From the NCBI GenBank assembly GCA_000004985.1, contig GG738907.1: a DNA stretch of 64,000 bases. One strand, written 5' to 3'. This stretch comes from Naegleria gruberi (lineage: Eukaryota). Of the stretch, positions 23,197-34,733 are shown piece by piece. Every line of letters begins with the position of its first letter. The first letter of the stretch is position 1. Made by a program: the position numbers and the translations under genes. Below the pieces are notes generated by a model. That model was not told the DNA's origin. It made no database searches and worked only from the letters and a program-made list of their open reading frames with translations.

Positions 23197-23791
23197 TTTT
23201 TTTAATTGTTAGTTGTTTGATTTGTAACATCAGATGATTGCTTTATTGCTTTTCATAAGATGATTGCAATCATGTTATCTTCCTGATGAAGATCAGCTGG
23301 CTGCCTCCAACAGACAAAAATTCAACTCATTGGACAACGATGATGATCATAAAAGTTTAATGTGGCTTGTTTTGTGTGGCGTTTAATGTCCTATCGGAAT
23401 GAATCCATTTGGTAGACAATTATTTTCGTTATAGTAATCAGGAATGATGGTTCCTTTCTCTTTACAAAGTTGCTGTTGTTAGCAAAGAAATAGGATTGTT
23501 CAATTCATTGTTTGGAAATTTCCAAGTTGTATTATTAAACGTTTTTGTTCATGTAATTAGCGCCATATTGACCGTTACATATTTTTTAAATATTCAAATT
23601 TTTTTAAAAAAACAATTTCAAACAAATAGGATGAAAAGGAATAATTGTATTATTGGCAATTTTGGCGGATGATAATAGTGCATACCCGTGATACTTTTCA
23701 GGTCCATACAACAAGTGGTGCAAAATTGGTTTAGATAGTGAATAAGTGGTAAAGTAATGGCAAAAAATTGGTGGAATTTTCAGAAAACAAA

Positions 23792-26700
23792 ATGTTCAAA
23801 GGCTCATACTACGAGAAGGTTCTTGATGAAGAGGAGAGTTTCAAACCAACAACAACACCATCATCACCATCAGAACAACATGAAGATGTAGATAGTACTT
23901 CTTCGGAGGAAAATAATATACTTCCACCAATGATATCATCTCCAATGGAAAAGAAGGAAAATATAACGGTTGATCGAATGGAAACAAAGGCTTGTTCGAA
24001 GGCTTGTTGTTCTTCATCATCATCATCGAAGGCTGGTTGCTCAGAGGAAGAAGAACAACACGAACATTCGGCAGTTAATAGTACTCACAAACATAGTAAA
24101 AGAGGAACGAAATCAAAGTTGATGTATGGAAAGAAGAAGATCAAAATTAGTCAACTGCAACATTTGACAAAACAACATGATGAACATCATCACGAAGAAG
24201 AAACGACGTCAGAAACAACAAACATTTGCGAGAAGTCAAGCTCTTCTAATTGTTGTTCTTATGGTTCTTGCTCAAAGGAAAAACAAAAAGAACCAAACAA
24301 TGCAATTGTTTCAGATTGCTGTTCTTCAGGTTCCTGTTCCAAGAAAAGCAATGTTCCAGTTGAGAAGAAATCAACATGTACTTCTGGTTGTTGCCAGTCA
24401 GTATCAACTTCCACTGAGAGCAGAACAGAATTGAAATTGGATAATTTACTTCCTAATCACAAGTCTCTGCATTTGACTGTGAGAAATTTGCATTGTGCTG
24501 ATTGTGCCAATATGGTTGAGGGAGTTTTAATTAAGAAGAATGGTATTCTGAATGCCAGAGTGAATAGTATGACAGATTCAGCTCATGTAGTATATGACGA
24601 ATTAATTATACAAGAAACATTAATTGTAAAATCAATTCAAGACCTTGGATTTCCAACTAGTGTCTCTCTATTGAAAAACATTTCAAATTCTGATCAGGAA
24701 ACTCTTACAACCATGTTCGAATTCAAACAGGAGTTACAAACACACAAAGTAGATGAATTAGTTAAGAGCATTGAAAAAGGGGATGGCATTATTCATACGG
24801 CCTATGATACATCGAGTTGTCTCCTCCAAGTGGCTTACAATCCTGATATTACAGGTACAAGAGATATTAAGAAAATGATTGAAACCATCGATTCGAGCCA
24901 TATGTTTACAATTATGAGTGGTAGTAAAGCTAACGAGATTACCGATCAGAACAATAAGAATGAAATCAAAATATGGAGGAGAAACCTTATTGTTTCCTTC
25001 ATTCTTAGTATTCCAGTCATATTTACAGCATTCATCTTTCCAATGATCAAACCAGTTGATGAATTTTTGAAGAAGGAATTCTTACAAGGCCTCAATAGTT
25101 ATATTCTTATTGGATTTATTTTCTCAACACCAATCCAATTTTATTTTGGAAGACCATTGTACATGTCAGCTTACAGAGCTCTACGATATGCAAAAAAGCC
25201 AAACATGGATACACTTGTAATGCTGTCAACTACCACTGCTTATGTTTACTCGTTAGTGAGTACAATAATTGCAATGTTTGTTGAGACTTACAAGGCCGAA
25301 GCATTCTTTGAAACTTCGGCACTCTTGTTGACATTTATCATTTTGGGAAGGTAGGTTTTCTTACTTGTTATTAATTTTATTTATAATTACTATTAAGGTT
25401 TTTGGAAATACTTGCCAAAGGACAAACTTCGAGCATACTTACTTCCATTTTGAAACTCAGATGCACCAAAGCTTTTTTGATATTCAGAGGAAACTATGAA
25501 AGAATAACATGTCAAACCGAACTTGTAAATAATTCACATGCTGTAGAGGAAGAGGAGATTGATACTGATCTTGTTCAAAGAGGCGACATTTTAAAATGCC
25601 TTCCAGGTTCAAAAATTCCAACTGATGGAGTAGTGTTTTATGGCACTACATCGATTGATGAATCAATGATTAGGTAAGTTTTGAACCATAATTTAATTTG
25701 ACATTATTCAACCATAATAGTGGTGAATCTATTCCAGTTAACAAGGATGTTGGAGATTTTGTTTATGGCAGTACAATCAATCAATTTGGAACAATCTATA
25801 TCCGTGTAACAAAAACTAGTTCTGAAAATACTCTTTCTTCAATTGACAAATTAATTCACGAATCTCAAAATGCTAAAGTACCCATTCAAAGAATTGCTGA
25901 TAATGTTAGTGCAGTGTTTGTACCTGTAATTATTGGTATTTCCTTATTGGCTTTTATTATTTGGATCAGTTTGTGTTATGCTGGAGTTTTGGAAACTGAC
26001 CTGCATCCAATCACCTTTGCTTTACAGTTCTCTCTTGCAATTTTGGTAATTAGTTGTCCTTGTGCTATTAGTTTGGCAGCTCCAACAGCTGTGATGGTCG
26101 GTATCGCCAAAGGTGTTGAGTATGGTGTACTATTCAAGAATGGTGCTGTAATTGAGATGTGCCACAAGGTTAACACAGTCATATTTGACAAGACTGGTAC
26201 CTTAACCAATGGAAAACCAGTTGTTACAGACGTGTTGCTTTTTGAGGGAGATGATTTGAAGCAATTCAAAGCAATTATAGGTTCTGCAGAGTTGGGAAGT
26301 GAACACGTTATTGGAAAGGCTATTTCAACACACGTAGAAAAGGAGGGAATAGCTATAGAACAACCTGTTGATTATCAAGCAGTTCCAGGAAAAGGATTAA
26401 AATGTACAGTCTATGGAAAACAAGTGATTGCAGGTAATTGCACTTGGATGAAGGACAATTCAATTGAAATTTCAGAAACACAACAAGAACAAATTTTAAC
26501 TTTGGAGAATCAAGGAAAGACAATTGTTCACGTTGCAATCGATGGTTCTTTACATGGAATTGTTGCCCTCTCTGATACTCTCAAGGTGGAATCCAAACGA
26601 GTTATTGATGAATTGAAGAAGAAGAATGTGGAAATTTGGGTGGTTAGTGGAGACAACCAAGTCACAACTAGATATATCGCCAACCAATTAGGCATTGAGA

Positions 26701-27155
26701 ATGTAATGGCCAATGTCCTTCCAGCCTACAAGAGAGAAAAAGTGCTTGAATTGCAACAAGGTAAAACTTCCAATGGTAAAAAGAGAGTTGTTGCAATGAT
26801 TGGAGATGGTATCAATGATTCACCATCTCTAGCCCAAGCAGATGTTGGTTTTGCAATTGGATGTGGTTCAGATATTGCCTTAGAAACTGCGGATATCATT
26901 TTGGTAAAGAGTGATTTGAGAGATGTGCTTGTGGCTTTGGATTTGTCAAGGACTACTTTCAGAAGAATCAAACTCAACTTTTTATGGGCCTTCCTTTATA
27001 ATGCTGTTGGTATTCCATTATCTGCTGGAGCATTCTATCCAATCCTTGGTATTGCAATTCCACCAGCTATTGCAGGATTATCTGAGATTTTCTCTTCCAT
27101 TCCTGTAATTCTCTTCTCCTTACTTTTGAAATTCTACAAACCAAAGATTTATTAA
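23792..27155 (+). CDS. Copper-transporting P1B-type ATPase, 3 exons (23792..25350, 25398..25673, 25721..27155; two 47-nt introns)
   Basis: The N-terminus is Cys/His-rich, followed by an HMA-like domain (LTVRNLHCADCANMVEG). The CPC transport motif is ISCPCAISLAAP. Exon junctions restore ILGR|FLEILAKGQTS and DESMI|SGESIPV, the actuator (T/S)GES motif. Other motifs are DKTGTLT and GDGINDSPSLAQADVGFAIG. The first ATG is at 23792; the called ORF begins at an upstream TTG. Confidence 0.8.
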
Positions 27156-27306: not shown

Positions 27307-28619
27307 ATGACCTCCACTATTTGTGAAGAAGAAACTAACCAAACGAATGTGGAGCAACAACTTTCAACTAGTAGTAGTATCAACAATACACCATTATCGG
27401 ATACTGTGGAAACAAATCAGGGTGCTAATATAGGAGAAACCAAAAAGATGGGAGAAACTAATCATGCAAACAAACGCAAGTCTCAAAATCAGCACAAAAG
27501 AGAAGAAACTCCAATAATATACAAGGTGAAAACACCGGAAATTATATTATTCAACTCTCCCAAGATGGTGCTGGAAAGGATGAAAGTAGATGGTATTCGA
27601 AAGTCCAAGCTAACGGTTGACCAAATAATAATCCTCTCCTTGTTTGCTGGTTTATTCATCGGATTGGCTTGTGCTATGGCCATATTGATTGGAGGAAACG
27701 TTCCAGACCTAGAAGAAAAAAACCCAGGTCTCCAGAAACTTCTCTCCGGTGCGTAAGTTTTTCACACTTTCATTTTCATTTCACACACGAGATTCGAATA
27801 GTGTTTTTCCTATTGGATTGATTCTTATAGCCATGACTGGTTCTGAATTGTTTACTGGTAACGTTTTGGTCTTGTTAGTTGCCTTGTTTTCAAGAAAATG
27901 GAGAGCCAAAAAGTTTCTTCTTCAGTAAGTGAAATAGTTTGAAATTAATAATTGAAATTTTCAAAGATATACACAATTTTCAAAGAATTTGTTCGTGAGC
28001 TACTTGTTCAATTGCTTGGGAGCATTTCTATTTGCCTACTTTTTCGTGTATTTACCACAACCTTGCTGCTCTGCTTATTGGATTAAATACATACAGAACA
28101 TGTCAGTTGCCAAAACGACAAAAACTTTTGGAAATTTAGTGTTATTGGCAATTATTTGTAACATGTTAGTGACTGTTTCTGTATTCTGCTGTAATGCAGC
28201 AACTACATTGGGAGGAAAATTTCTTGGCATTTGGTTTCCATTAATGACATTTGTTTGTTTAGGATTTGAACATAGCATTGCAAATGCTTTTTACATTCCT
28301 CTTGGCATGCTTGTAAGTAATTTTTCAATTAATTTATGAAAATTTATTGTAAACTCAATGTTAGTATGGAGCTAATGTAACAGGATATGATTTTCTTATT
28401 GGAAACTTACTACCTGTCACTATTGGAAATATAATTGGAGGAGCAATTATTAATGGATGTTTATTATATTATGTACATGATTTTAGAGTGAGACATCATA
28501 GAGCCATATTCAATTTTGCAGAGAAAATATGGGAAAAGATAAAGAAGAGGAAGGAAAATACAGAATCAAACACATCTTCATCTATTGAACTATCCGAAAG
28601 TAAAGAGAATATGGTCTAA
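27307..28619 (+). CDS. Formate/nitrite transporter (FNT) family channel, 4 exons (27307..27748, 27820..27913, 27967..28312, 28365..28619)
   Basis: Motifs MTGSELFTGN, LFVSYLFNCLGAFLFAYFF, GFEHSIANAF and GNLLPVTIGNIIGGA are FNT signatures. Introns of 71, 53 and 52 nt keep the frame. Exon 1 needs the donor g|gtgcgt at 27749, not the adjacent gtaagt, to stay in frame, so that boundary is less certain. Confidence 0.65.
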
Positions 28620-28831
28620 ATATTTGTACAATTTTGATTACAACAAGATTTTCAATTTTCATATGAAAGTTATTCAATAAACTTATCAATTTTGTCCACT
28701 AAATCTCTTATTTCAATTAAATCATTGAATATCTTCGAACAATCTATTGAATTCTTCAATGCCAAAATGTAAACTTCAACATTTGATCAACAATTTCAAT
28801 AAGCGATTTCGAATAACTTTTTCAAAAAAAA

Positions 28832-31273
28832 ATGTTACCTCCTCATCTCTTCAAATCTTCTGTTAATATCAAACCTGATCGTTCCAATTTTACATTGGAA
28901 AGGAATTATGATCTGATTCAGGAATCTCTGATGGAAAAACGTGAAATTTTAATTCCTGGCGAGGAAATTGAAATTGATTCACATGTTTATTGTGTTAATT
29001 TGTTTAAAGTAGCAAATTCGGGTGATGAAAATAAAGTAGTGGAAACAGTTGATGAAAAGATGAATTCGGGTGATGGAAAGGAATTGATTCGAAATAAGGA
29101 TCATTTGTTCTTGGTTGACCATTTGTTGCATCAGGAAGAGTGTAAAGAAATATTAAAGAAGGAAGAATCGTTGGGTTTCGAATCAATTACTTCTGAATAT
29201 CCGGTTGAGTATAGAAATAGCAAGAGAATTCTTTACAATGACAAGGAATTGGCTGCCAAGTTATGGAAAAGATTGAAAAAGTACATGATTGATTGTAATT
29301 TTATGAAACCTTATGGTTTAGACAGTGAAGGTTATTGGATTCCAATATCTGTAAACGAATGTATGAGATTGAGCAAGTATGAACCTGGAAATTATTTCAA
29401 ACCTCATACTGATGGTCAATTTGTGAGAAATGATGATGAGAGAAGTATTTACACATTGATCATCTATTTGAATGATGGATTTGTTGGTGGCGAAACTAAA
29501 TTCATGAGAAGAGTTGATCCTCTCGCTGAAAATGAAATGAAATTCAAGAATTTATGTGAAATTAGTCCCAAGATGGGAAGTGCATCTGTGTTTAATCATG
29601 ATTTGTATCATCAGGGATGTCTAGTAACAGAGGGTGTGAAATACATTTTAAGAACTGAAATAATGTTCAAGAGAATTGACTCAGCTGAGCAATTAGTGAC
29701 TAAACAAGATAATGATGAGATCTATAACAAAGTTATGGATCTTTTGCATGAAAGCGACCAACTGGAAAGGAAGGGGGACACTTACCAAGCAACCAAACGT
29801 TATATAAGTGCACAGGAATTATTGATCAAAAGTGGACATTCAACTTCAATGTTAATGAATCCAAAATTTCTTTCTAAAAGGAAAACTCTCAATGCTGAGA
29901 ATTATTCAATGAAGAGCTCAATTTCTCGATTACCAGATGAGATTATCTCACATATTTGCAAATTTTTGAATGACTGGGAAATTTGCAAGCTCATTCTTCC
30001 ACTCGACAGATATTTCAATGATATTGGACGAAACTCACCATTATGGGAATGGATGTATATGAAAAAATGGGGACATTCTATCACTAATTTACTGAAACAA
30101 TTTCACTCAAGAAATATTGAGGAGCTTAGAAATCTCAATTCACAAGACAATACAAGCTCACTTGAAGAAACACCAACTGAGGAGCAGGATTGGTTCCATA
30201 TTTATATCATGAAACGATATTTTGAAAAGGAGTTTGAACCAATTTGTGTGGATTTTGGTCCTGATATGTATTCCTTTACATATTTTGCAACCATTAATGG
30301 AGATATCGAAAGAGTTGTAACTAGACCCATAAAAGGGGCCACCAGACAGTAAGTAGAATATTTGTGAAACTTTCCAAGATCTTTTTGAAAATAGTGCAAC
30401 CATCACTAAATTTTGCAGTTATATCTTACCAGATTATCATAATCAAAACTCTCGATCTCTGGCTGGAGCAGTTAAAATTCATGATTTAAATAATGGTGGC
30501 TATTCGAAATATGTTCAACCATTCGTCAACTTGCTTTACAAAAAATTGAACAAGAGTTGTCAAAGGAATCCGATTATTATCAGTTGTGGATCGAGTGAAT
30601 TTATGAATTTCAATTCTTGGAAAGAAGTATTATTGGATTACATGGTAAGTATTTCACATTAGTTCATCAAATATATTCTGAAATCGTCTAGTTCAAGATT
30701 AAGATCCCAGCTGTTTGCGTGCTCCCAAGATGTTATCTATTAGCAATTTACTTTAATCTACCAACATGTCTAGTTATTGATGTTTTAAGTAATGCAGTTT
30801 ATGTACATGCCATCATTCAAAATGACAAGGATCAAATTAGAACTGTCTATAAACCCATCACATCTAACAGGAACGTGTATCCTATAAGGCCAGCAGAGGA
30901 TAAAAACTCATTCGAGGGGCCAATAATTAATGCCATTGACACCCTCTTGGATCAATTTTCAGATAATGCCAATCTGAAATCTCATTTAATGGAAAATATT
31001 ATACTTTCTGGAATTATTGTTGAAAATTCTTACGAATTTAATTTCAGAAATCTTGGTGAAGAACCAAAATCAAAAAGAAAAGATTTGGAACGTAACGATA
31101 TTCTCGAGGTATTCAACTCTCCAAATTCCAAATATCAAGTCAAATATCAAGCTAGTGGCGAAGAGGCCATTAAGGGAGCTCAACAATTTTCTAAAATTCC
31201 AAACTTTAAGGATTATTGCACTTATTGGTTCGATTGTGAGAAGTTTGTCAAGCAATTCGATGCATTTGAGTAA
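28832..31273 (+). CDS. Fusion-architecture protein: prolyl 4-hydroxylase-like 2OG-Fe(II) dioxygenase + F-box + compact actin-related (Arp-like) domain; 3 exons (28832..30348, 30419..30644, 30692..31273)
   Basis: The P4Hc motifs are YFKPHTDGQ (H-x-D), YTLIIYLNDGFVGGETKF, the second His in NHDLYHQG and the Lys in VKYILRT. The F-box is LPDEIISHICKFLNDWEICKLILPL...WEWMYMKKW. Then, in the same ORF, ICVDFGPDMYSFTYFATINGDIERVVTRPIKGATRQ resembles the actin N-terminus [33 protein letters not shown]. The joined exons give PIIISCGSSEFMNFNSWKEVLLDYM|FKIKIPAVCVLPRCYLLAIY, resembling [66 protein letters not shown] resembles [32 protein letters not shown] resembles NTVLSGGTTMYPG. The introns are 70 and 47 nt. 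Confidence 0.55.
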
Positions 31274-31297: not shown

Positions 31298-32248
31298 TTA
31301 CACTTTATCGTCATGCTGCTGCTGCTGTGGTTGTGGAGGTGCTTGTGGTGAGGGAATATATATTGTGGTTGGTGCCTCATTATCACATGTTGATTTTCTA
31401 TAATTCATTGAGTATTGAATGGATTCGTTTGATTCGAATTGTTGATTGGAAATATTTGGATTGACCATTCCATGATTATTCGTCATTGCTAATTCAGATT
31501 CGTTGTGATTGTAATATTGTAAACTTGCATCTGATGTGTTGTTGGTACCAGCAACAATATTACTTTGAAAATTATTGTAATAGATGGGCTGTTGTTGATT
31601 AGGTGGAATGACAGTTGCATTATTTGGAGGATATTGATAATAATTCATCATCATTGGATTCGGTTGACTAAAATAATAACGGTTTACAAAACCTGTATTT
31701 TCAATAATCATAGGATGTTGCTGCACTGTTTCGCCTGTTTCTAATTGCATCACAGAAACATTTGCCAAACCAATTTCACTTCCAGTATTCATTGCAGCCA
31801 TCTTTCTTCTCTGAATAATCATTCGAATAGACAATAGAATAAACAAAACACCCATCACCAACAAAATACCAGCTGATGCACCCAGAGGAATCATAATCGA
31901 ATCATAAACTGGACAATTATCTTGTTTCGGTTGCTTTACACAAGTTGCCATCAAGACTCCCAACACCAAACATGCAATCAACTCTGCAATTGCAATCAAA
32001 CTGAAAACTCCACCCAAAATCAGAAGTGTTTTTGGATTATTTCTAGAACTGCCACCTGAAACTCGTAGAACTCCACCACTTGGCCTTCCAGTTGTGGTAT
32101 GGAGATTAGTTCTGTGGTTTCGTCTTGAGAATGCACTTCTTGAGGGAGTGTGGTGATGAGTTCTGTGTCCAACACCACCTGTCCTTCTGGCTCCGTGTGA
32201 TCTATTGCCTCCACTTCTGCCACTTCTGCCACTTCTTCCTTTGGCCAT
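31298..32248 (-). CDS. Hypothetical membrane protein with Arg/Gly/His-rich N-terminus and two TM helices
   Basis: A 316-aa ORF opening with ATG (aaaaaaATGgcc). The N-terminus is MAKGRSGRSGRSGGNRSHGARR...HRTHHHTP. Two hydrophobic helices follow (LLILGGVFSLIAIAELIACLVLGVLMA and GASAGILLVMGVLFILLSI), then a N/Q/Y/P-rich C-terminus. Confidence 0.4.
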   Translation of the reverse strand: MAKGRSGRSGRSGGNRSHGARRTGGVGHRTHHHTPSRSAFSRRNHRTNLHTTTGRPSGGVLRVSGGSSRNNPKTLLILGGVFSLIAIAELIACLVLGVLMATCVKQPKQDNCPVYDSIMIPLGASAGILLVMGVLFILLSIRMIIQRRKMAAMNTGSEIGLANVSVMQLETGETVQQHPMIIENTGFVNRYYFSQPNPMMMNYYQYPPNNATVIPPNQQQPIYYNNFQSNIVAGTNNTSDASLQYYNHNESELAMTNNHGMVNPNISNQQFESNESIQYSMNYRKSTCDNEAPTTIYIPSPQAPPQPQQQQHDDKV

Positions 32249-32522: not shown

Positions 32523-34733
32523 ATGTGCCAAATCATGATGAGGAGTACTAGTTTCGAAGAAGAAGAGGAAACATCTGATGAGGAACAACAAGAACATACC
32601 AGTCCTATTCATGCTGATGAAGAAGAAACTGCTGAACAAAGTTCCTCCGAAGATGAAGAAGAAGAAATTATGCTAGCAGAAGATGACGATTTATTAACCC
32701 AACAGAATAATCACCATCAGCATCACCCTAACGAAGAAGAAGAAGAAGAGGATTTAAATAATCAACAAGAAGAAGCAGCACCAATTATTGAAGAAGAACA
32801 GGAGGATGAAGATTCCGATTCAACTAAATTATCATCACCTGTTATTAGTACTCATCATAATAATCAACACAACACATCTACAGCTAATAGCAGTAGTGGT
32901 GCTGCTGAGGAATCCATTCAAATTGATGAAGATGATTTAGAGACGCTGAGAAGGGATGATCATATGGAAAATGGTCTTTTGGAATGCGATGAGGAGATGG
33001 ACTACTTGTTGAATGATGAGAAGATCATGATGCCACAAACACCTCTGCTCATTAATAATGATAATTTTACGACGCCAAATAGTGCTGGATCTGTAACTGT
33101 GGCTATGCCTTTTTTGGATGATGTGGATGGTTGTGTGGAATCAAAACCATTGAATGAGAACGAAATAGAGTGTAAATTAGAATGTAATATAGTAACAACA
33201 GAGGAAGTATCAGAGAAAGAAAATGTAGAATTGGCCACTGAGAGCTCAGTTCTACAGATGAATCAGCCAATTGCACATAACTCTGAGAGTTTAATCGAGA
33301 ATCGTCAAACAATTTCTATTGCAGATGAGCAAATGAATGTTTTAGTGATGGAAGATGATCAGATTGTTGTGAATCAAGAAGTAATAGAGAAACCATCTCT
33401 AATTCAACAACAGGAAACCCAACCAAATAACACAGATATCATCTCATCAATTAATTTGGATGAAGATTTAGATATTGAAATGATTAATGACTTCCTGCAA
33501 TCAGAAAAGGGAGCCGATTTGTGTGAAGAACATTCAAAGGAAAATTCCCCTCATGGAGACTCTATCAGTAATCAGAGTATGAATGATTCTTGGAATACCA
33601 ATTACACCACCGATAGTTTAGGTTCAACAATGCACCATCGACAACCAATGCAAGGTTGTACTCCATTGATATCGAGAAAGAACTTTAATCATCATGCTCA
33701 AAGTATTCCACTGGAAGACTTGCTGCAAAATTATGATCATCGAATTGAGTACTCTACATTGGAAATGCTTATTAAGGAGCTTGAGGGAATAGGTGTTTAT
33801 ACAGTCAATAGTTTACCGCTAGTGCCAAAGAAACATATAATGGCTCTTCCAGGTATGGATGATAGATTGTATGAAAATTTGATGGATTCTGCTCAAAGCT
33901 TGGATCCTTCTCAATCCTTTGGATTTTCCACAGCAACACAATTTCTGCACGAGTTTCACACCAAAAGATACAAGGTCACTACTGGATGCACTGCTTTTGA
34001 TGAGTTGATTGGTGGTGGTTTTGAATCCTCCTCAGTGAGTGAACTTTTTGGAGAGTCTAGCTGTGGTAAAACTCAAGTGTGTTTCACACTCTGTTTAACT
34101 GCACAACTACCACTAACTGAAGATGGTCCCTCTGGAAAGGTTTTGTACGTGGATACAATGGGAACATTTAATCCGAGTAGAATTCAGAGTATTGCAGAAA
34201 GATTTTCTAAAGATGATGAGAGAATGACCACCCTCTTCATGAATAATATTTTGAAAGAAAGAATTTATACATCAGATCAATTATTTTCAAATCTCAATAG
34301 AATTACAACTCTTTTGAAAAGTAATAAGGGAAAACCATTCAAATTGATTATTGTTGATAGTGCTGTCAGTGTTTTCAGGTCTGAATATAAGGGAAAGGAT
34401 GAAATCAACATTCGTCAACAATACTTGTTAAAATATTTGGATTCTCTGAACAAACTAGCTGAACAATTTAATATTGCCATAGTAATTACCAATCAAGTTA
34501 TGGACACATTCGATAAGCCACTAATGTACTCACCTTACAAACAAAATACTTCATCTACCATTAAACCAGTTGGAGGACATATTATGGGTCACACCATTCC
34601 AACAAGAATCCAACTTTGTAGAGAGAAGCAGAAGAGAATTGCCAAAGTATTTAAATCTTCAACCAGGCCAGAAGGTGTCTGCAACTTTTCAATACAAGCA
34701 ACAGGTATAACAGATTATGAAGATGTAGACTAG
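32523..34733 (+). CDS. Rad51 paralog (RecA-fold ATPase) with ~430-aa acidic N-terminal extension
   Basis: The C-terminal region TTGCTAFDELIGGGFESSSVSELFGESSCGKTQVCFTLCLTAQLP...GKVLYVDTMGTFNPSRIQSIAERF matches the Rad51 Walker A block [24 protein letters not shown]...GKAMYIDTEGTFRPERL..IAERF. A Walker B-like LIIVDSAVSVFR follows, and an HhH-like segment LEMLIKELEGIGVYTVNSL precedes. The N-terminal half is E/D-rich low complexity. Confidence 0.65.
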   Translation: MCQIMMRSTSFEEEEETSDEEQQEHTSPIHADEEETAEQSSSEDEEEEIMLAEDDDLLTQQNNHHQHHPNEEEEEEDLNNQQEEAAPIIEEEQEDEDSDSTKLSSPVISTHHNNQHNTSTANSSSGAAEESIQIDEDDLETLRRDDHMENGLLECDEEMDYLLNDEKIMMPQTPLLINNDNFTTPNSAGSVTVAMPFLDDVDGCVESKPLNENEIECKLECNIVTTEEVSEKENVELATESSVLQMNQPIAHNSESLIENRQTISIADEQMNVLVMEDDQIVVNQEVIEKPSLIQQQETQPNNTDIISSINLDEDLDIEMINDFLQSEKGADLCEEHSKENSPHGDSISNQSMNDSWNTNYTTDSLGSTMHHRQPMQGCTPLISRKNFNHHAQSIPLEDLLQNYDHRIEYSTLEMLIKELEGIGVYTVNSLPLVPKKHIMALPGMDDRLYENLMDSAQSLDPSQSFGFSTATQFLHEFHTKRYKVTTGCTAFDELIGGGFESSSVSELFGESSCGKTQVCFTLCLTAQLPLTEDGPSGKVLYVDTMGTFNPSRIQSIAERFSKDDERMTTLFMNNILKERIYTSDQLFSNLNRITTLLKSNKGKPFKLIIVDSAVSVFRSEYKGKDEINIRQQYLLKYLDSLNKLAEQFNIAIVITNQVMDTFDKPLMYSPYKQNTSSTIKPVGGHIMGHTIPTRIQLCREKQKRIAKVFKSSTRPEGVCNFSIQATGITDYEDVD

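Follow-up and report, generated by a model that had tools for sequence, protein, structure and literature searches.

Can a single gene join a prolyl 4-hydroxylase (P4H)-type dioxygenase, an F-box and an actin-fold domain in one polypeptide, and if so, what would such a protein do? The question is raised by a locus on the plus strand of the 64,000-nucleotide stretch of DNA analysed here (contig GG738907.1, hereafter the window), which has 34% GC and is gene-dense, with long open reading frames (ORFs) and short GT-AG introns. A first-pass annotation, made from the letters of the sequence, had proposed that one continuous reading frame at 28832-31273 carries all three domains. Those two positions prove to be the exact ATG start and the end of the stop codon of a predicted spliced gene, and we refer to its product as the query protein.

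The gene model comprises three exons separated by two canonical GT-AG introns. Exon 1 (28832..30348, +) begins at an ATG preceded by a run of A and stays open up to a GTAAGT donor. It encodes residues 1-505 plus 2 nucleotides, covering the N-terminal region, the P4H domain, a helical hairpin, the F-box, a linker and the start of the actin-like domain, and its product is 99% identical to a 506-residue ORF from a metagenome (P0001). Intron 1 (30349..30418, +) is 70 nucleotides long, reads GTAAGT...TTTTGCAG, and interrupts the gene in phase 2, splitting the codon of His506 as CA|T. Exon 2 (30419..30644, +; residues 506-581) supplies a subdomain-2-like region and a PIIISCG segment equivalent to actin 102-108; it is in frame and can be aligned over both splice junctions to the Naegleria lovaniensis and Naegleria fowleri homologues (P0003 and P0004). 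Intron 2 (30645..30691, +) is 47 nucleotides long, GTAAGT...TCTAG, in phase 0, and the junction LLDYM|FKIKIPAV aligns without gaps to the P0003 segment VLSMMMEMRIPAA. The remainder of the actin-like domain is encoded by exon 3 (30692..31273, +; residues 582-774 plus the stop codon), which contains a degenerate phosphate-2 loop (LVIDVLSNA), the segment NIILSG corresponding to actin 297-302, and a C-terminal G-A-x-x-F-S-K-I-P-N-F block. The spliced coding sequence is 2325 nucleotides long and uninterrupted, giving a protein of 774 residues. The continuous frame described in the first-pass annotation therefore exists in the joined product, but only once both introns are spliced out, as the raw ORF (28832-30352) has 506 codons and ends at a stop inside intron 1. 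The motifs that the annotation had quoted are all present: HTD at residues 192-194, LYHQG at 258, the distal His260, Lys270, LPDEII at 367, ICVDFG at 471, PIIISCG at 557 and NIILSG at 683.

We considered whether two neighbouring genes, one encoding a P4H-F-box protein and the other a small actin-like protein, have been joined by mistake. Existing gene calls lend this idea some colour, because intron-blind, prokaryote-style callers split the locus (into the 506-residue P0001, and into separate ORFs on the metagenome contigs L001 and L002) and a Naegleria gruberi relative (P0002) is annotated at 576 residues only. However, there is neither a start codon nor a promoter-sized gap between the parts. 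ICVDFG, the first β-strand of the actin fold, is already encoded in exon 1, 5' of intron 1, and thus the actin-like region is not a separate gene. The histidine whose codon is split by intron 1 is present in at least 90% of 40 family members (the 40 relatives cited throughout), and a paralogue on contig L002 has intron 1 at the same position and in the same phase, with the same split His codon, before it continues in frame into its own actin-like domain. On the strength of the conserved His506 and the shared intron, the idea of two separate genes was rejected. Moreover, all three domains fall in one alignment stretch in the unspliced ORFs P0007 and P0009 and in transcriptome homologues from Physarum, Arcella, Soliformovum, Dracoamoeba and Ancoracysta. 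A gene-model artefact consequently has next to nothing to recommend it, and we conclude that the locus is a single predicted three-exon gene of a heterolobosean (Naegleria-like) amoeba. The assignment to Heterolobosea, in place of the amoebozoan host assumed earlier, follows from the nearest named relatives of the query, which are found in N. gruberi (46% identity by BLASTP, 52-53% in MAFFT alignments), in N. lovaniensis and N. fowleri (32-33%) and then in Acrasis kona.

The same comparisons turned up a near-identical allele. The whole of contig L001 corresponds to window positions 28813-31125 with 99.35% identity; it differs by 12 substitutions and one 3-nucleotide deletion in exon 2, which is in frame, and its splice sites are intact. 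The paralogue occupies positions 1606-3632 of L002 and is 38% identical. Because both contigs come from one public metagenome run (ENA ERZ929261 / ERR1078381, PRJEB11402), the organism of the window, or a very close strain, was present in that environmental sample. P0002, the closest N. gruberi protein model, which was noted together with the metagenome ORFs P0001 and P0006, stops a few residues past the intron 1 site and is devoid of an actin-like domain. The shortness of P0002 probably reflects a truncated annotation that reads through into an unrecognised intron, not a real difference.

The dioxygenase domain (29093..29686, +; residues ~88-285) was identified by Pfam, by matches to P4H structures in the PDB, by an AlphaFold2 (AF2) model and by Foldseek. 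The Pfam family PF13640 (2OG-FeII_Oxy_3, where 2OG stands for 2-oxoglutarate) matches residues 179-273 above its gathering score (E=2e-10; 41.8 bits against a cutoff of 27), and the same family is matched in all 40 relatives. A phmmer search of the PDB returned the Bacillus anthracis P4H (E=4e-5), and in this alignment H192 (29405-29407), D194 (29411-29413), H260 (29609-29611) and K270 (29639-29641) coincide with its iron triad and its 2OG-binding lysine. These four residues are invariant among the 40 relatives, which represent very distant lineages. K270 lies at +10 from the distal histidine H260, as it does in the B. anthracis enzyme; a lysine at this position is the basic residue for the C5 carboxylate of 2OG. 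The first-pass reading of an intact P4Hc oxygenase, with its H-x-D motif, distal His and Lys, was therefore well founded.

To place the domain among known enzymes, a profile of 12 family sequences was compared with the PDB. It retrieved collagen-type P4Hs only (B. anthracis, 1.8e-9; Chlamydomonas, 7e-6; PBCV-1, 1e-4; human P4H-TM, 3e-4), with no match to PHD2 or PhyA at E<=0.01. The AF2 model of the exon 1 product has a predicted local distance difference test score (pLDDT) of 80-94 over most of residues ~80-280. Foldseek searches with this model returned PiuC, PPHD, vCPH, Cr-P4H, P4H-TM, BaP4H, PhyA and PHD2 (E 4e-9 to 1e-5), consistent with a double-stranded β-helix; Dictyostelium discoideum PhyA (6t8m) ranked 23rd among these structural matches. 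The family also carries its own insert, PYG(F/L)DxxGxWxP, in which P160, G162, G167 and W169 are invariant in 40 sequences. Together, these results identify the domain, by its residues, as a predicted catalytically intact 2OG/Fe(II) enzyme of the collagen-type P4H family. No JmjC or Cupin match was found by Pfam in the query or in the 40 relatives, and any resemblance to JmjC-type F-box dioxygenases is thus one of architecture only. Weak Pfam matches to Pox_C4_C10 (poxvirus C4/C10 proteins) occur in 13 of the 40 members, probably owing to the shared 2OG-oxygenase fold.

The P4H domain had been thought to run directly into the F-box. Instead, about 80 residues separate the two, and these include a helical hairpin (29714..29830, +; residues 295-333) recognised from the AF2 model and from a family motif in the alignments, S..LE+.G....ST..Y..A. 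The modelled helices span residues 295-313 and 317-333 with pLDDT of ~75-80, and S308, G315, Y324 and A327 are conserved across the family alignments.

The F-box itself (29921..30061, +; residues ~364-410) has the sequence LPDEIISHICKFLNDWEICKLILPLDRYFNDIGRNSPLWEWMY. Taken alone, it scores below the Pfam thresholds, with 16.5 bits for F-box-like (cutoff 24.3, E=0.007) and 12.3 bits for F-box (cutoff 20.5), both over the N-terminal half only. Its relatives are more readily recognised: at E<=0.01, F-box-like is matched in 33 of 40 and F-box in 25 of 40, the best at 3.7e-13. The query segment LPDEIISHICKFL...SPLWEWMY fits the pattern LPxE(I/L)...I/F..L ... LW over ~45 residues, which is common to all relatives, and W405 is invariant in the 40 members. 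When eight heterolobosean F-box segments, including that of the query, were combined into a profile and compared with the PDB, FBXL5 was retrieved at 1.3e-4, together with FBXO4, Cdc4, FBXW proteins, FBXL2, KDM2B and Skp2; the matches span profile positions 6-50, and those to FBXL5, FBXO4, Cdc4 and KDM2B range from 1e-4 to 0.03. In the AF2 model of the query the region forms three short helices with pLDDT of 38-55. The pattern, the relatives and the profile support the F-box that the first-pass annotation had reported, and residues ~364-410 are most simply explained as an F-box homologous to structurally defined Skp1-binding F-boxes.

An F-box next to a prolyl hydroxylase brings to mind Skp1 as a substrate, with the F-box holding the enzyme in cis on Skp1 (or on a cullin). 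It is established that in protists a cytoplasmic P4H hydroxylates a Skp1 proline (PMC3515798, PMC9485057), with PhyA acting on Skp1 in Dictyostelium and Toxoplasma, and PhyA does appear, at its lower rank, among the structural matches. However, the sequence profile places the query family with collagen-type P4Hs and outside the PhyA/PHD clade, and orthology to PhyA was rejected on the same grounds. PhyA and the present family also co-exist in dictyostelids, so that the family is not a substitute for PhyA. Both observations make a role in Skp1 hydroxylation less likely, and the idea would leave the conserved actin-like domain without a role; we consider it improbable.

The actin-like domain (30233..31270, +; residues ~468-774) extends across all three exons. 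Pfam Actin (PF00022) has no match in the query, either at full length or with the C-terminal 311 residues alone, even at E<=10. The same family is matched in 33 of 40 full-length relatives (best 9e-36), and five of seven family C-termini match it when taken singly. The Pfam searches proposed by the first-pass annotation thus gave a mixed outcome, with 2OG-FeII_Oxy_3 above threshold, the F-box below it and Actin unmatched in the query alone, and with 33 of 40 relatives positive for each of the latter two. Homology to actin can nevertheless be followed through these relatives. The query C-terminus aligns to that of the N. lovaniensis homologue (BLASTP, E=4e-25) and to that of an N. gruberi paralogue (3e-7). 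A profile of seven family C-termini retrieved actins from the PDB at 9e-20, and a profile restricted to the query, N. lovaniensis and N. fowleri gave actin (8e-4) and Arp4 (0.017) as its top, co-linear matches. The three blocks that the first-pass annotation had aligned with actin are in register, covering actin residues 8-18, 102-165 and 297-305 in order.

For the fold, the C-terminal AF2 model of the N. lovaniensis homologue served as a proxy (26-29% identical to the query in this domain; pLDDT 66, predicted template modelling score (pTM) 0.72). Foldseek matched this model to actins (E~5e-11, TM 0.63-0.70). The predicted fold is that of actin, with two RNase-H-like lobes, and is nearest to eukaryotic actin and actin-related proteins (Arps), not to MreB, ParM or Hsp70; an Hsp70, sugar-kinase or MreB identity was rejected. 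The earlier description as an Arp-like domain therefore holds for the actin fold but not for any special closeness to an Arp, as no named Arp is closer than actin itself and conventional actins are the best profile matches. Weak Pfam matches to 'Salactin' were seen in 5 of 40 members.

Which features of actin remain was assessed by aligning the 40 C-termini to human β-actin, whose sequence was confirmed to be identical to the PDB entry 'Actin, cytoplasmic 1'. Several nucleotide-loop positions are retained family-wide (n=40): D11 in 36, G13 in 35, K18 as Lys in 24 and as Arg in 6, G156 in 31, G301 in all 40 and G302 in 34. By contrast, no member retains Q137 or H161 and only 6 retain D154, and D157 is also among the lost residues. 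In actin, Q137, D154 and H161 activate the hydrolytic water or hold the γ-phosphate. The query keeps D11, G13 and G301 only, with P for S14, D for G15, S for K18, R for Q137, L for G156, S for D157, Y for H161 and E for G302. K18, G156 and G302 are replaced throughout the sub-lineage formed by the query, P0003, P0004 and the L002 paralogue, in which the equivalent of actin ~181-269 (subdomain 4) is absent. The region equivalent to subdomain 2 and the D-loop is unconserved and has low pLDDT. The loss of ATP-hydrolysis residues and of subdomain 4 suggests that the domain neither turns over ATP nor forms actin-type filaments. Judged by these residues, it is probably a non-polymerising, non-ATP-hydrolysing pseudo-actin that serves as a docking or interaction surface.

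Such erosion could also mean that the actin-like domain is a decaying relic in this lineage, and that only the P4H-F-box part is functional. The most eroded actin-like domains are those of the query, P0003, P0004 and the L002 paralogue, in which subdomain 4 and the nucleotide loops are lost and, for the query, the Pfam match with them. A stop lies directly past the exon 1 donor, so that retention of intron 1 would yield a 506-residue P4H-F-box protein without the actin-like domain, which is possible as an alternative isoform. Yet the frame stays open for 269 more codons and across two introns, the C-terminus is conserved with N. lovaniensis and N. fowleri (65 invariant columns, at the E=4e-25 given above), the sole indel of the L001 allele leaves the frame intact, and several species and paralogues have retained the domain in its shortened form. 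Decay of the domain is, on this evidence, highly improbable. The stop codon itself is a TAA that adjoins the splice donor (CA|G TAA GT; window 30349-30354).

We next asked how far this architecture extends. Twelve close relatives were recovered with the query, and an exhaustive profile search returned 1285 representative clusters at E<=1e-30. Among the best 150 of these clusters, about 37 have a single alignment stretch that covers at least ~600 of the 760 positions of the profile. In the alignments the query exons were entered as separate rows, and the exon 2 piece, which was misaligned, was left out. Members in Heterolobosea come from Naegleria (including four N. lovaniensis paralogues), Acrasis and Willaertia magna. 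The first-pass annotation had suggested a search of amoebozoan genomes for orthologues with the same architecture, and they were found there: in Dictyostelia (Tieghemostelium, Cavenderia, Acytostelium, Heterostelium, Polysphondylium, D. firmibasis, D. citrinum and D. discoideum AX4, DDB_G0281783/Q54TF2) and in Physarum, Arcella, Dracoamoeba and Soliformovum. Further members belong to the chytrid fungi Nowakowskiella and Rhizophlyctis and to Ancoracysta. Among the proteins looked up, no full-length member came from animals, plants, ascomycetes or basidiomycetes. Members are annotated as 'hypothetical', 'F-box domain-containing' or 'Fe2OG dioxygenase domain-containing', and once as 'actin'. We conclude that the gene belongs to what its alignments identify as an old and widespread family with the fixed domain order P4H-hairpin-F-box-actin fold.

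Some members depart from this plan. The Heterostelium album homologue has a precomputed Arf match (PF00025) in place of Actin, and two environmental members are much longer, at 2127 and 1290 residues; these Arf-matching and overlong proteins (P0164, P0041 and P0046) are either extra fusions or merged gene models. All named members come from lineages with amoeboid or crawling stages, namely Heterolobosea, diverse Amoebozoa, chytrids and Ancoracysta, which is a correlation only.

What, then, would the protein do? The P4H centre, the F-box and the actin fold reside in one polypeptide, and all three are under long-term conservation. The invariance of the catalytic residues, of the F-box tryptophan and of the equivalent of actin G301 in distant eukaryotes points to a conserved function. 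We propose, with about even confidence, that the protein is a hydroxylase dependent on O2 and 2OG, tethered to Skp1 and the Skp1-cullin-F-box (SCF) machinery, with a pseudo-actin docking domain. In this model, the F-box would dock the protein onto Skp1, whether Skp1 is part of an SCF-type cullin-RING ligase or of a complex other than SCF. With O2 and 2-oxoglutarate as co-substrates, the dioxygenase would hydroxylate a residue, most likely a proline, in a target protein. The pseudo-actin would mimic an actin protomer, and thereby recruit actin, an Arp or Arp-containing complex or an actin-binding protein, or else localise the enzyme. Hydroxylation, which would depend on oxygen and metabolite levels, and SCF ubiquitination could then converge on the same partner.

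A precedent exists in JcdI/Fbxo13 of Dictyostelium, in which a JmjC dioxygenase is combined with an F-box that binds Skp1 directly; this protein has an O2 dependence in the physiological range, and its conservation extends across protists (PMC9485057). JcdI supports the proposed tethering in so far as it joins an F-box to a dioxygenase and binds Skp1. Several points weigh against our proposal. The F-box of the query is modelled at low pLDDT, and neither this F-box nor the query's own actin-like domain reaches its Pfam threshold, their support coming through relatives and profiles. The actin-fold model is that of a homologue with 26-29% identity and is itself of moderate confidence only. Finally, the F-box of JcdI is dispensable for its O2-sensing phenotype (PMC9485057), and therefore an F-box need not denote a substrate receptor.

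This last point underlies the main rival explanation. The O2-sensitising effect of JcdI requires catalysis and not the F-box, and association with Skp1 correlates with lower JcdI levels (PMC9485057). By the same logic, the query could be a free-standing hydroxylase whose F-box lets Skp1/SCF control its own abundance or solubility, while the actin-like domain would do no more than position the enzyme, for instance at the cortex or on Arp-containing complexes. Two features would fit such an enzyme: the F-box is internal, not N-terminal, and no part of the protein is more conserved than its catalytic residues. However, W405 and the LPxE/LW pattern are kept over the whole phyletic range, and a C-terminal domain of the interaction type gives the protein the classical order of an F-box followed by a receptor domain. 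A JcdI-like, free-standing hydroxylase seems to us rather unlikely.

The proposal of an SCF-tethered hydroxylase can be carried one step further. The family might be an ancient module in which the pseudo-actin docks an O2/2OG-dependent prolyl hydroxylase, together with SCF, onto actin, an Arp complex or an actin-binding protein, so that oxygen or metabolic state would be coupled to turnover of the motility machinery. We regard this extension as doubtful. If it were true, the distribution of the family would reflect the lineages with amoeboid or crawling cells.

Immediately downstream, a convergent 316-residue ORF (31298-32248, -) ends 24 nucleotides past the stop codon of the gene; its product has an N-terminus rich in R, G, S and H, two or three hydrophobic segments, a low-complexity tail rich in Q, N and P, and a sub-threshold Pfam match to PspC-TM. 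Upstream on the plus strand, Pfam identified a heavy-metal (HMA), Cu-type P-type ATPase split over two ORFs (23768-27155), which are probably one intron-containing gene, and a formate/nitrite transporter in pieces (27952-28619). Further downstream lies a 736-residue Rad51-like ORF (32523-34733, +) with its Rad51 domain at residues 484-731 and an N-terminal extension of ~480 residues without a Pfam match. A functional link to the ATPase, transporter or Rad51-like genes was rejected, the genome being eukaryotic. An Rfam scan of the window gave no matches.

Has the architecture been described before? The first-pass annotation knew of no such protein, and this agrees with our full-text literature searches, which found no description of a P4H + F-box + actin architecture or of DDB_G0281783/Q54TF2. 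The terms 'hydroxylase', 'F-box' and 'oxygenase' are absent from the Dictyostelium actinome paper (PMC2441452), and DDB_G0281783 is unmentioned in the text of the Dictyostelium Skp1-interactome paper and in the supplement examined (PMC9485057). The Naegleria actin paper reports 78 actins and Arps for N. gruberi and does not describe the family (PMC7594500).

Little of the F-box repertoire of protists has been mapped, and O2 sensing by way of Skp1/SCF is being actively investigated in Dictyostelium and Toxoplasma. Through this family, oxygen sensing could be connected to protein turnover and the cytoskeleton. The gene also illustrates how an actin fold may be pared down, losing subdomain 4 and the ATPase residues, and be reused as a domain. 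Intron-blind or truncated gene models hide this architecture in some annotations. The hypothesis is directly testable, since an orthologue is present in the genetically tractable D. discoideum (DDB_G0281783) and several paralogues occur in Naegleria, the pathogen N. fowleri among them. To our knowledge, an actin-fold domain has not been seen in an F-box protein before.

Each part of the protein has known counterparts from which it differs. The nearest catalytic domains are those of the collagen-type P4Hs (B. anthracis 3itq/5hv0, Chlamydomonas P4H-1 2jig, PBCV-1 vCPH 5c5t and human P4H-TM 6tp5; E=1.8e-9 to 3e-4), which have in common with the query the HxD...H triad, the lysine at +10 and the fold. 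In contrast, these are stand-alone, secretory or ER (endoplasmic reticulum) enzymes without an F-box or actin domain, and the PYG(F/L)DxxGxWxP insert is peculiar to the query family. PhyA and the HIF-PHDs (EGLN) provide the logic of a cytoplasmic, O2-sensing P4H tied to cullin-RING ligases, through Skp1 in protists and VHL in animals, and are structural neighbours (6t8m, PHD2). They act in trans, however, lack an F-box, and form a different clade from the query family, with no profile match at E<=0.01.

On the actin side, the domain is orthologous to no named Arp when set beside actin, Arp1-11 and domain-fused actins such as Dictyostelium filactin (PMC2441452). PHD3-dependent prolyl hydroxylation of non-muscle actin has been reported to tie a prolyl hydroxylase to actin dynamics or motility (PMC4161513), although non-HIF substrates of PHDs are disputed (PMC6739866). 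That system acts in trans, is animal-specific and biochemically contested, and involves no fusion of an F-box and an actin fold. Equivalents of actin Pro307 and Pro322 are not conserved in the actin-like domain of the family, as read by eye from the alignments.

The closest parallels in overall design are proteins that place an Fe(II)/2OG dioxygenase and an F-box in one polypeptide, namely JcdI/Fbxo13, JcdH and KDM2A/B. KDM2A/FBXL11 and KDM2B/FBXL10 are animal proteins that combine JmjC, F-box and leucine-rich repeats (LRRs) in the order enzyme, F-box and C-terminal interaction domain. A sequence relationship of JcdI or KDM2 to the query was detected in the F-box only. JcdI, JcdH (PMC9485057) and KDM2A/B are of the JmjC type and carry C-terminal LRRs or other modules, never an actin fold, whereas the query is of the P4H type and ends in one. 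The family would thus represent a second kind of dioxygenase-bearing F-box protein, after the JmjC-type JcdI and KDM2. Such proteins as a class were already known; what is new here is a P4H-type enzyme in the place of JmjC and an actin fold in the place of LRRs.

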